DNA of 64,000 bases from Candidatus Babeliales bacterium (GTDB taxonomy: Bacteria > Babelota > Babeliae > Babelales > UASB340). The notes under the pieces were generated by a model, which did no database searches, was not told the origin of the DNA, and saw nothing but the letters and a program-made list of their open reading frames with translations. The stretch is taken from assembly GCA_041650475.1 (NCBI GenBank), contig JBAZLD010000005.1, positions 623-64,622 of the forward strand, in the 5' to 3' direction. Position numbers and translations under genes: made by a program. Position 1 is the first letter of the stretch; every line of letters starts with the position of its first letter. Of this stretch, positions 10,083-11,644 are shown piece after piece.

Positions 10083-11204
10083 TTAAATCCAATACATTTT
10101 TAAGATTTTAAAATATTTTTTTAAAGAATCATCTTTTTTTTCTAAAGATTTTTCTTCTCCTTTTTTTTCCACATACTCCTCCATTTCCTTTATTACCACA
10201 AGCACCTTTTGCTTAACATTATTCACTTTACCACAAGATAGCACAGAATAAACCTTTGGCCCAAATTCTTTAGATAAAATTCCAGAAATATTTTTTAAAA
10301 CCTTAGGACATTCACCAAAAATTGGTGCCATATATTGCCAATTTTTTTCCCAATCAATTCCCCAATCTTTTTTAAAATTTTCAATCAAAACATTAAAACT
10401 CTCTTTTAATTTTTCTGCATCACTTGCCAATGGCTGTCTCAATCCCAAAACAGTCAATAATGCATCAGAAAAAAATAATAATTCCATTTTTTCATCAGCA
10501 GTAAAAACTGTAAATATATCTTGTAACGTTACATTTTTATTTGTTATTTCTCTTTTTTTATTTTGTGCTTTTTCAGGGGGCTCATAATATATATCTAAAA
10601 ATTCAAGATCTGACGCTTCTATTAACTCAGAAACATCATCCAGTTTCTTTTTTCTCTCTTTTAAAAATTCCGTTAATTTTTTTAATATCTCCCCTTCAGC
10701 TAATTTATTTTTTATATGTAGCCCTTGTAATAAAATATTATACTCTTTTTTAAATTCTTGTTTTTCAAAATCAAAAGCTTCATTAATATTTATTTTGCCA
10801 TTCTCACAAGTTATACAAAAACTAACTTCACCCTCAAAACCATCGTTCTTTTCTGTTAGATTAAAAGTTTGCCACCTATTTAAATTAGGTAAAACTTTTT
10901 TTAAAAATTTTTTTATAAAAACACTCTCATCTTGCCTGTCCGTCGTAGCCTTGGCGAAGTCGGATTCTTTTTCTTGAAACTCTTTTTTTTTAGGTTTTTC
11001 TATTGTTAACTGAGAAATCGCTAAATTAATACCACCCAAAGCAAGCATTCTAGCTTGTTCTTTTGATACCATATATTTATCAAAATTTCTGCCAATATTA
11101 ACACTTCTAACAAGTTGTAATGTTATAAAAGTTATAACAGAGAGCATTAATAACGTATATAATAAAATCGATGCTTTTTGTTTTTTAACTAATTTAAATT
11201 TCAT
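10083..11204 (-). CDS. gspK: Type II secretion minor pseudopilin, GspK-like
   Basis: 373 aa. The hydrophobic N-terminus KASILLYTLLMLSVITFITL lacks the Glu5 position, as in GspK. It has a GKININEA motif and occupies the last pseudopilin position of the operon. Confidence 0.6.
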   Translation of the reverse strand: MKFKLVKKQKASILLYTLLMLSVITFITLQLVRSVNIGRNFDKYMVSKEQARMLALGGINLAISQLTIEKPKKKEFQEKESDFAKATTDRQDESVFIKKFLKKVLPNLNRWQTFNLTEKNDGFEGEVSFCITCENGKININEAFDFEKQEFKKEYNILLQGLHIKNKLAEGEILKKLTEFLKERKKKLDDVSELIEASDLEFLDIYYEPPEKAQNKKREITNKNVTLQDIFTVFTADEKMELLFFSDALLTVLGLRQPLASDAEKLKESFNVLIENFKKDWGIDWEKNWQYMAPIFGECPKVLKNISGILSKEFGPKVYSVLSCGKVNNVKQKVLVVIKEMEEYVEKKGEEKSLEKKDDSLKKYFKILKMYWI

Positions 11205-11424
11205 TAATCATCTTATAAAATTCATCAATAGAAAGATTTATTTCTTTTAAAATCGTTCTAATTAAAGGCCTGGATAAGTCTTTATTATGATGAGGAATCG
11301 TAGTTCTACGCCCATCAGGGTGAACATAAAAAGCATGACTCCCTTTTTGTCTTTTAAATTCAAAACCCAACAAAAACAAAACTTTTTCCAGCTTTTTAGC
11401 ATTTACAATTATAAGTTTAATCAA
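11194..11424 (-). CDS. hicA: HicA-family mRNA interferase toxin
   Basis: 76 aa. LGFEFKRQKGSHAFYVHPDGRRTTIPHHNKDLSRPLIRTILKE matches the HicA/YcfA signature (RQKGSH...HPDGR...P.H.KDL). Confidence 0.85.
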   Translation of the reverse strand: MIKLIIVNAKKLEKVLFLLGFEFKRQKGSHAFYVHPDGRRTTIPHHNKDLSRPLIRTILKEINLSIDEFYKMINEI

Positions 11425-11644
11425 CCTTAACCTCTAATTGTTGTACACCAACAAACTCGGGTAAAGAACTTTTATCAGCTTCTTCCATTTCTTCTAGGCA
11501 CAATTCAATAACTTCTTTAAGATTTTTATGCAATTCATCTAAACTTTCTGCTTGAGTGTGTGCTCCTGGAATAGAGGGCACAATGCCTATGTACATTCCA
11601 GACTCCGGATCTTTTTCTATATAACTAACAAATTTCATAAACAC
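11417..11644 (-). CDS. hicB: HicB-like antitoxin (UPF0150 fold only; no DNA-binding domain)
   Basis: 75 aa. [42 protein letters not shown] is the typical HicB N-domain pattern. It overlaps hicA by 8 nt. Confidence 0.8.
   Translation of the reverse strand: [75 protein letters not shown]

Follow-up and report, generated by a model that had tools for sequence, protein, structure and literature searches.

HicAB toxin-antitoxin (TA) modules fall into several classes, with Class 1 and Class 2 ranking as the most prevalent (Gerdes, bioRxiv 10.1101/2023.12.08.570793). In Class 2, hicB precedes hicA, the antitoxin HicB counts 57-94 amino acids (aa) and lacks a DNA-binding domain, the toxin HicA counts 60-85 aa and the two genes usually overlap (Gerdes, bioRxiv 10.1101/2023.12.08.570793). 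The regulation of Class 1 and Class 2 HicAB is treated as an open question in the same survey, 'Diverse Genetic Contexts of HicA Toxin Domains Propose a Role in Anti-Phage Defense' (bioRxiv 10.1101/2023.12.08.570793). The present text concerns one hicBA pair encoded on the minus strand of a 64,000-nucleotide (nt) stretch of the metagenome-assembled genome (MAG) of a Candidatus Babeliales bacterium (GenBank assembly GCA_041650475.1, contig JBAZLD010000005.1, positions 623 to 64,622); this stretch is called the window hereafter and all coordinates are given in its numbering. The pair lies inside a pseudopilin operon, between the genes of a GspJ-like and a GspK-like protein. The explanation that we favor, with a probability of roughly 80%, is that a Class 2 hicBA cassette was inserted precisely at this junction in the lineage of a single Babeliales species, that it came from a pool of cassettes present in the same bacterial family and that it is a selfish or addictive passenger.

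The classical HicAB systems (Classes 3 and 4) are represented by those of Escherichia coli K-12 (6HPB), Burkholderia pseudomallei (6G26/4C26) and Yersinia pestis (HicA3B3, 4P78). The window pair appears to share with them the catalytic histidine of HicA and the HicA-binding N-domain of HicB. It falls outside their classes, since its gene order is reversed, hicB then hicA, and its HicB lacks the C-terminal domain of the helix-turn-helix (HTH) or ribbon-helix-helix (RHH) type; HicB is therefore not expected to repress its own promoter. Among solved structures, the best matches by sequence or fold include three Thermus thermophilus proteins, TTHA1756 (2YZT), TTHA1013 (1WV8) and the HicA-type 1WHZ, whose HicBs are similarly small (67-73 aa); these are structural-genomics entries without functional data, and their sequence identity to the window proteins is moderate. 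Ties between TA expression and a pilus or DNA-uptake regulon, as opposed to autoregulation alone, are exemplified by E. coli hicAB, which has a Sxy/CRP-S promoter (P1), and by the competence-regulated toxTA of Haemophilus influenzae (bioRxiv 10.1101/330480). The gene spacing in the window suggests a similar tie. However, hicAB and toxTA each form an operon of their own, equipped with its own promoter and an antitoxin that binds DNA, whereas the window pair sits inside an operon and its antitoxin has no DNA-binding domain.

The hicB and hicA genes and their products

The toxin gene hicA (11194-11424, minus strand) codes for a protein of 76 aa scoring 66.2 bits against HicA_toxin (PF07927; cut-off 27), with profile positions 2-58 of 58 covered. 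A genome-wide profile search identified it as the sole HicA of this 1.39-Mb genome. Among solved structures, phmmer matched it to 1WHZ at 2e-9 and also to 4C26, 6G26, 4P78 and 6HPB. The GSH motif is intact (RQKGSHAFYVHP) and His29 aligns with position 24 of 4C26, the residue mutated in that structure. We take 4C26 to be the H24A catalytic mutant of B. pseudomallei HicA and position 24 to be its catalytic His24; by this alignment, His29 is predicted to be the catalytic-type histidine of the window toxin. The hicA open reading frame (ORF) opens just after an in-frame TAG, and its first possible start is a TTG at 11424, located 6 nt after a GAGG (11431-11434).

The antitoxin gene hicB (11417-11638, minus strand) offers two starts, a GTG at 11644 giving 75 aa and an ATG at 11638 giving 73 aa. 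The latter is preceded by AAGGTG (11642-11647). The protein matches HicB_lk_antitox (PF15919) at 31.5 bits, a marginal score for a cut-off of 27, and only with the N-terminal half of the 123-position model. With phmmer, the 67-aa TTHA1756 (2YZT) was found at 3.6e-5 and B. pseudomallei HicB (6G1C) at 1e-3. An AlphaFold2 (AF2) model built with 26 homologues reached a predicted local distance difference test (pLDDT) value of 93.7 and displays a strand-strand-strand-helix order, with a long helix and then a short tail. The top Foldseek matches of this model were the N-domains of 6G1C, 6G26, 6HPB_B and 4P78_A as well as the stand-alone 71-aa TTHA1013 (1WV8), at probabilities of 0.99-1.00 and template modeling scores (TM-scores) of 0.53-0.64. 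The model depicts HicB as the partial RNase H-like HicB N-domain alone, without a DNA-binding domain. The chain stops at residue 73, where an HTH or RHH domain would not fit, and it keeps nearly all positions that are invariant in the family.

An earlier note, made from the letters of this DNA, had proposed a genuine HicB-HicA pair. Its coordinates and the two overlaps it gave, 8 nt between hicB and hicA and 11 nt between hicA and the GspK-like gene, are exact, and both peptide signatures it quoted are found in the ORFs. The profile check with hidden Markov models (HMMs) places both proteins above the Pfam cut-offs, and the matches to solved structures and folds agree, which upholds the pair as genuine. 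The note had also described a HicB of 75 aa: a short HicB ORF is indeed present, but its length and start need revision, as the ATG at 11638 agrees with the homologues (MKF[VT]SYIEKD, 73 aa) and with the gene call of an independent assembly and is, on this comparison, more probably the start. Finally, a short HicB devoid of DNA-binding domain had been considered unusual. It is instead the norm, because the pair belongs to Class 2, which this very feature defines; a short hicB lies directly upstream of hicA in 79 of 80 related loci from many phyla, and stand-alone HicBs of 67-73 aa are known from 2YZT and 1WV8.

The window pair displays every feature of Class 2: hicB followed by hicA, a HicB of 73 aa, a HicA of 76 aa and an overlap of 8 nt (11417-11424). 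It is an ordinary Class 2 hicBA cassette whose proteins are no different from those of the class as described by Gerdes. Its location alone is notable, 34 nt after the upstream gene, overlapping the downstream gene by 11 nt and within a pseudopilin operon.

The state of the two genes bears on the possibility that a recently landed pair is no longer toxic or expressed and is heading to decay. Chromosomal TA toxin genes are often inactivated, for instance by deletions in H. influenzae hicA and toxT (bioRxiv 10.1101/330480), and the TTG start of the window hicA is weak. Set against this, neither ORF is truncated, HicA has its GSH motif and HicB nearly all family-invariant positions, as described above, and the coupled overlap and the ribosome-binding sites have been retained. 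Such an inactive passenger seems unlikely, and we keep to a cassette that still encodes a complete toxin and antitoxin.

Probable gain of the cassette at the gspJ-gspK junction

Directly upstream of hicBA is the gene of a GspJ-like minor pseudopilin (11673-12704, minus strand) and directly downstream that of a GspK-like minor pseudopilin (10083-11204, minus strand). This junction was compared among 40 Babeliales relatives, consisting of 11 family members and 29 order-level genomes. The GspK-like protein has a homologue in all 40 and a GspJ-like gene is detectable in 35; where both were detected, the two genes adjoin on one contig and strand in nearly all relatives. The gspJ stop and the gspK start are 8 nt apart, without cassette, in the same-genus genome G001, the two genes overlap by 4 nt in genome G002 and they abut in three further family members (L004, L007 and L008). 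None of the 40 relatives gave a HicA match in the vicinity of the GspK-like gene. HicA is present in 10 of the 41 genomes, this one included, and in the relatives it is found on another contig or far from the GspK-like gene. The interruption of a conserved gspJ-gspK order, claimed in the earlier note, is thus borne out by synteny.

Because the junction of G001 is devoid of the pair and HicA is absent from the vicinity of the GspK-like gene in the 40 relatives, the cassette was most likely gained on the branch leading to this species, after its split from the same-genus relative, as parsimony suggests. The synonymous divergence (dS) between host genes of this species and G001 amounts to about 0.4-0.7, and the nearest GspK-like protein among 5.8 billion proteins is that of G001, with 85% identity. 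Of the options raised in the earlier note, a selfish insertion is the best supported.

The only HicA of G001 belongs to a different module, in which hicA (87 aa) precedes an RHH-type hicB of 108 aa, on another contig (L020:1-1355, JAIPGX010000055.1). This module is located just downstream of, or next to, a gene with a Fic motif (HPFVDGNGRTARL), and close homologues of the G001 HicA often occur in lineages associated with amoebae, Chlamydiota and Legionella among them.

The GspK-like gene of G001 (locus L002) encodes a shortened N-terminus, MHNQKAS, as compared with MKFKLVKKQKAS in the window and MRFSLVKKQKAS in G002; the gspJ-gspK junction therefore varies even without an insert. This shortened head could be regarded as a deletion scar if the cassette had already occupied the J-K junction in a common ancestor and had been precisely removed from G001 and other lineages. 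Such a history would call for many independent clean deletions across the 11 family members and the 29 order-level genomes, while the related cassettes of the family reside at other loci; disfavored by parsimony, an ancestral arrangement is highly improbable in our opinion. Insertion in the species lineage remains the preferred reading. The window N-terminus corresponds to that of G002, so the ancestral start codon survived the insertion; it is now found in the overlap with hicA (11194-11204, ATGAAATTTAA), within the last codons of the toxin gene. The GspK-like gene is intact. Its ratio of nonsynonymous to synonymous substitution rates (dN/dS) against G001 is 0.14 and falls inside the range of the neighboring genes (0.08-0.22); there is therefore no sign of decay following the insertion, and the gene evolves under constraint. 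Further support comes from hicB, whose dN/dS among the family cassettes as a group is 0.05-0.24.

A chimeric metagenome contig that had placed a foreign TA pair in the operon could mimic an insertion, and the estimated contamination of this MAG is 5%. However, both junctions are seamless with correctly overlapping reading frames, and the nearest relatives of the cassette come from the same family. Moreover, an independent ENA assembly contains the identical arrangement on a 194.9-kb contig, with the same gene order and 1 mismatch over 6231 nt. Because of this independent assembly in particular, we hold an artefact to be extremely improbable and treat the arrangement as genuine.

Traces of the insertion mechanism were sought at both ends of the pair. 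The insert is accompanied by no mobility gene and no significant target duplication, and a repeat search of its flanks was negative. The hicB and GspK-like genes share the start ATGAAATTT and the spacer upstream of hicB contains AAATTTAAA. A target-site duplication or microhomology was rejected, since the best ungapped match between the junctions, 11/12 nt, was equaled in 49% of shuffles and in 32% of segments drawn at random from the window. The cassettes were also judged to lack conserved ends, an attC-like site and inverted repeats: the similarity between cassettes ends at the ORF borders and an attC site would not fit.

The surrounding genes form a tightly packed minus-strand string running from a GspF-like gene to an MCE-domain gene (8440-15468). 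The gspF-like gene (14218-15468; T2SSF, 186.9 bits) and gspG (13762-14193; T2SSG, 49.7 bits) are followed by two prepilin-type pseudopilin genes designated by their position in the string, where N_methyl motifs occur among the pseudopilins, at the H position (13215-13772/13790) and at the I position (12710-13207). Up to this point the intergenic gaps are of at most 24 nt or replaced by overlaps. The GspJ-like protein matches N_methyl (PF07963) at 26.2 bits and, weakly, the NCBIfam models ComGF, PRK10557 and GspJ. Direct sequence reading places between its stop and the hicB ATG a spacer of 34 nt (11639-11672), which carries the hicB ribosome-binding site. Downstream of hicBA and of the GspK-like gene, an MCE/MlaD-domain gene (8440-10050; MlaD PF02470, 50 bits) follows after 32 nt, in the same order as in G001, and is the probable last gene of the string. 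All gaps from gspF through the MCE gene are of at most 34 nt or are overlaps. A GspF platform, GspG and an N_methyl motif in four proteins fit a pseudopilin operon of the type II secretion or type IV pilus-like kind. The host, a member of the Dependentiae/TM6 with a reduced genome of about 1.4 Mb, is probably amoeba-associated.

The name of the downstream gene is a weak assignment, based on gene position, a weak HMM match and the top three folds of a low-confidence model. In NCBIfam, GspK (NF037980) was matched at 16.6 bits (E 0.0045) for a cut-off of 130, and ComGG at 1.5e-4. The AF2 model is poor (pLDDT 56), and its top three Foldseek matches are all GspK homologues, namely XcpX (5VTM_X), the T chain of the XcpGHIJK model 9A1F and GspK (3CI0_K), at probabilities of 0.87, 0.85 and 0.35. 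One source labels a homologue of the protein GspK; a PDB profile search performed with its homologues gave no match. The family is well conserved across Babeliales, with a match in 41/41 genomes, yet nearly invisible to GspK HMMs.

Related cassettes in other genomes

Cassettes made of a short hicB and hicA were found in four other Babeliales genomes (G004, G007, G010 and G023), in unrelated contexts. Their DNA shows a mean column identity of ~72% that is confined to the two genes, starting at the hicB ATG and ceasing where hicA ends, while the flanks are unrelated; the 34-nt spacer of the window is not conserved with the regions upstream of the other Babeliales cassettes. A tree of concatenated HicB and HicA (82 loci, 148 columns) groups the window cassette with those of the same-family genomes G004, G010 and G007 with a Shimodaira-Hasegawa-like approximate likelihood ratio test (SH-aLRT) value of 90. 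The most likely origin is a pool of related cassettes at unrelated loci of the same family, although the support from the tree is suggestive only. In G010 (candidate division TM6 bacterium GW2011_GWF2_28_16, L015:824-1909), 17 nt separate the end of hicBA from a downstream gene on the same strand, which resembles thymidine kinase by sequence reading alone, and the cassette probably heads its transcription unit.

Outside Babeliales the cassette is widespread, with HicA identities of 50-67% in Bacteroidota, Elusimicrobiota, Nitrospirota, Planctomycetota, Spirochaetota, Chloroflexota, Bacillota and Methanosarcinales. Carriage by plasmids or phages was considered and rejected: only four weak plasmid matches were obtained (34-43% identity), such carriage being rare, and the phage collection searched contained no match to the cassette.

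The neighborhoods of 82 other loci of the cassette family were surveyed using crude ORF-based gene calls, a cassette being counted as wedged when same-strand genes lay within 60 nt on both sides. Ten of the 82 were wedged in this sense, representing ~6 independent events. One case is a Cytophagales MAG (L032:2361-4833, JBBQLG010000120.1) in which hicBA lies between leuC and leuD (Aconitase, 558 bits, and Aconitase_C), 12 nt after the former and overlapping the latter by 1 nt; here the cassette comes between the genes for the two subunits of isopropylmalate isomerase. Further wedges involve mnmA and panB (L072), DUF1684 and pheT in Cyclobacteriaceae of the Cytophagales (L065, L094 and L100), and a LutB-like gene and DUF7033 in Chitinophagaceae (L025, L036 and L045), while a class-V aminotransferase gene lies upstream of the cassette in an Anaerolineae genome. 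According to Pfam, the flanking genes of the wedged loci are housekeeping genes, which led us to reject the idea that these loci are restriction-modification operons. Wedges can persist, because two of the types are conserved across several genomes of one family.

As a control, 80 loci of the RHH-bearing hicA-hicB type were collected with a query from G001, a set whose taxonomy differs from that of the cassette set; none of the 80 was wedged on both sides (Fisher p 0.0015 over all loci, 0.013 over independent events). Upstream tightness taken alone showed no difference between the sets, 14/76 for the cassettes and 11/76 for the control. Since wedges recur elsewhere, the wedge in the pilus operon adds another example to a pattern that this type of cassette shows repeatedly. 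The pair is ordinary, only its position is unusual, and even tight wedging is not unique to it.

A broader proposition would extend this habit to Class 2 hicBA as a class. Its members would be promoterless 'operon riders', units of ~450 bp without mobility gene that insert seamlessly at gene junctions of operons, where host transcription and translational coupling would replace autoregulation, the Babeliales pilus-operon copy being one fresh example. In its favor stand the ten wedged loci as against none in the control, subject to the crude gene calls and the differing taxonomy of the two sets. We put this forward tentatively and regard it as doubtful.

The survey also bears on functional co-option, by which HicA and HicB would act as a regulatory circuit of the pseudopilus operon, for instance by adjusting the dosage of the GspK-like or the MCE protein or by halting pilus synthesis under stress. 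The pair is embedded seamlessly and overlaps on its downstream side, and TA pairs wired into pilus or competence regulons have the precedents of E. coli hicAB and H. influenzae toxTA (bioRxiv 10.1101/330480). However, those linked pairs are separate, promoter-bearing operons with DNA-binding antitoxins; the cassette family is wedged in operons as unrelated as leuC/leuD, mnmA/panB and DUF1684/pheT; and the 40 relatives, the same-genus one included, all keep the pseudopilin operon with no HicA match near the GspK-like gene. As cassettes sit in unrelated operons elsewhere, the position in the pilus operon looks incidental and co-option is, in our judgment, decidedly unlikely. The suggestion that the pair stabilizes the operon or tunes pseudopilus stoichiometry found nothing in its support, the same 40 relatives included. 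The most likely reading is that the pair is a passenger, selfish or addictive and possibly active in phage defense, and not a component of the secretion machinery.

Expression, expected activity and significance

A passenger of this kind would depend on its host operon for expression. Transcription of hicBA probably proceeds by read-through from the promoter of the pilus operon, within the 117-nt region upstream of gspF, because the cassette lacks an autoregulatory domain, the spacer measures 34 nt and no terminator was found. The spacer is too short for a separate promoter and operator. No minus-strand promoter- or terminator-like match was detected within 11190-11760, in a scan that is weak in DNA of 28% G+C (37 matches vs 33 expected). 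Antitoxin excess would be set at the level of translation, the strong ATG of hicB and its AAGGTG contrasting with a TTG start of hicA whose use would be linked to the stop codon of hicB. The GspK-like gene, for its part, would now be translated by re-initiation in the 11-nt overlap, where hicA stops. The view that the genes look co-transcribed and translationally coupled is compatible with the overlaps and the 34-nt spacer, that is, with their spacing.

By analogy with the HicAB pairs of E. coli, B. pseudomallei, Y. pestis and S. pneumoniae, HicA would be a ribosome-independent RNase that cuts mRNA, and HicB would neutralize it by direct binding through the domain that is present here.

Several points weigh against this interpretation as a whole. 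No Class 2 module had been experimentally tested at the time of the survey (bioRxiv 10.1101/2023.12.08.570793), and the presumed toxicity and neutralization are extrapolated from HicAB pairs that bear a DNA-binding domain. Co-transcription and translational coupling are suggested by gene spacing, the promoter scan performed at chance level and a private promoter inside the 3' end of gspJ is possible. It is parsimony that favors a gain here over a loss in G001; the databases searched gave no closer strain for dating, and the JGI metagenomes yielded no exact-match contigs. The compositional signal is weak, the G+C content at third codon positions (GC3) being 0.21-0.23 in hicB and hicA vs 0.156 +/- 0.023 in the long ORFs of the window; a foreign composition was rejected, as this slight elevation is within sampling noise for genes of ~75 codons.

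The result is modest and reveals neither a new system nor a link between HicAB and secretion. It provides a clean, datable natural insertion of a TA pair into an operon for surface machinery, at a point where two genes linked in translation meet, with a downstream gene that bears no sign of damage. It also has a bearing on how Class 1 and Class 2 HicAB modules are regulated when their antitoxin does not bind DNA: the gene spacing in this bacterium and in several unrelated genomes is compatible with a promoter borrowed from the host operon.

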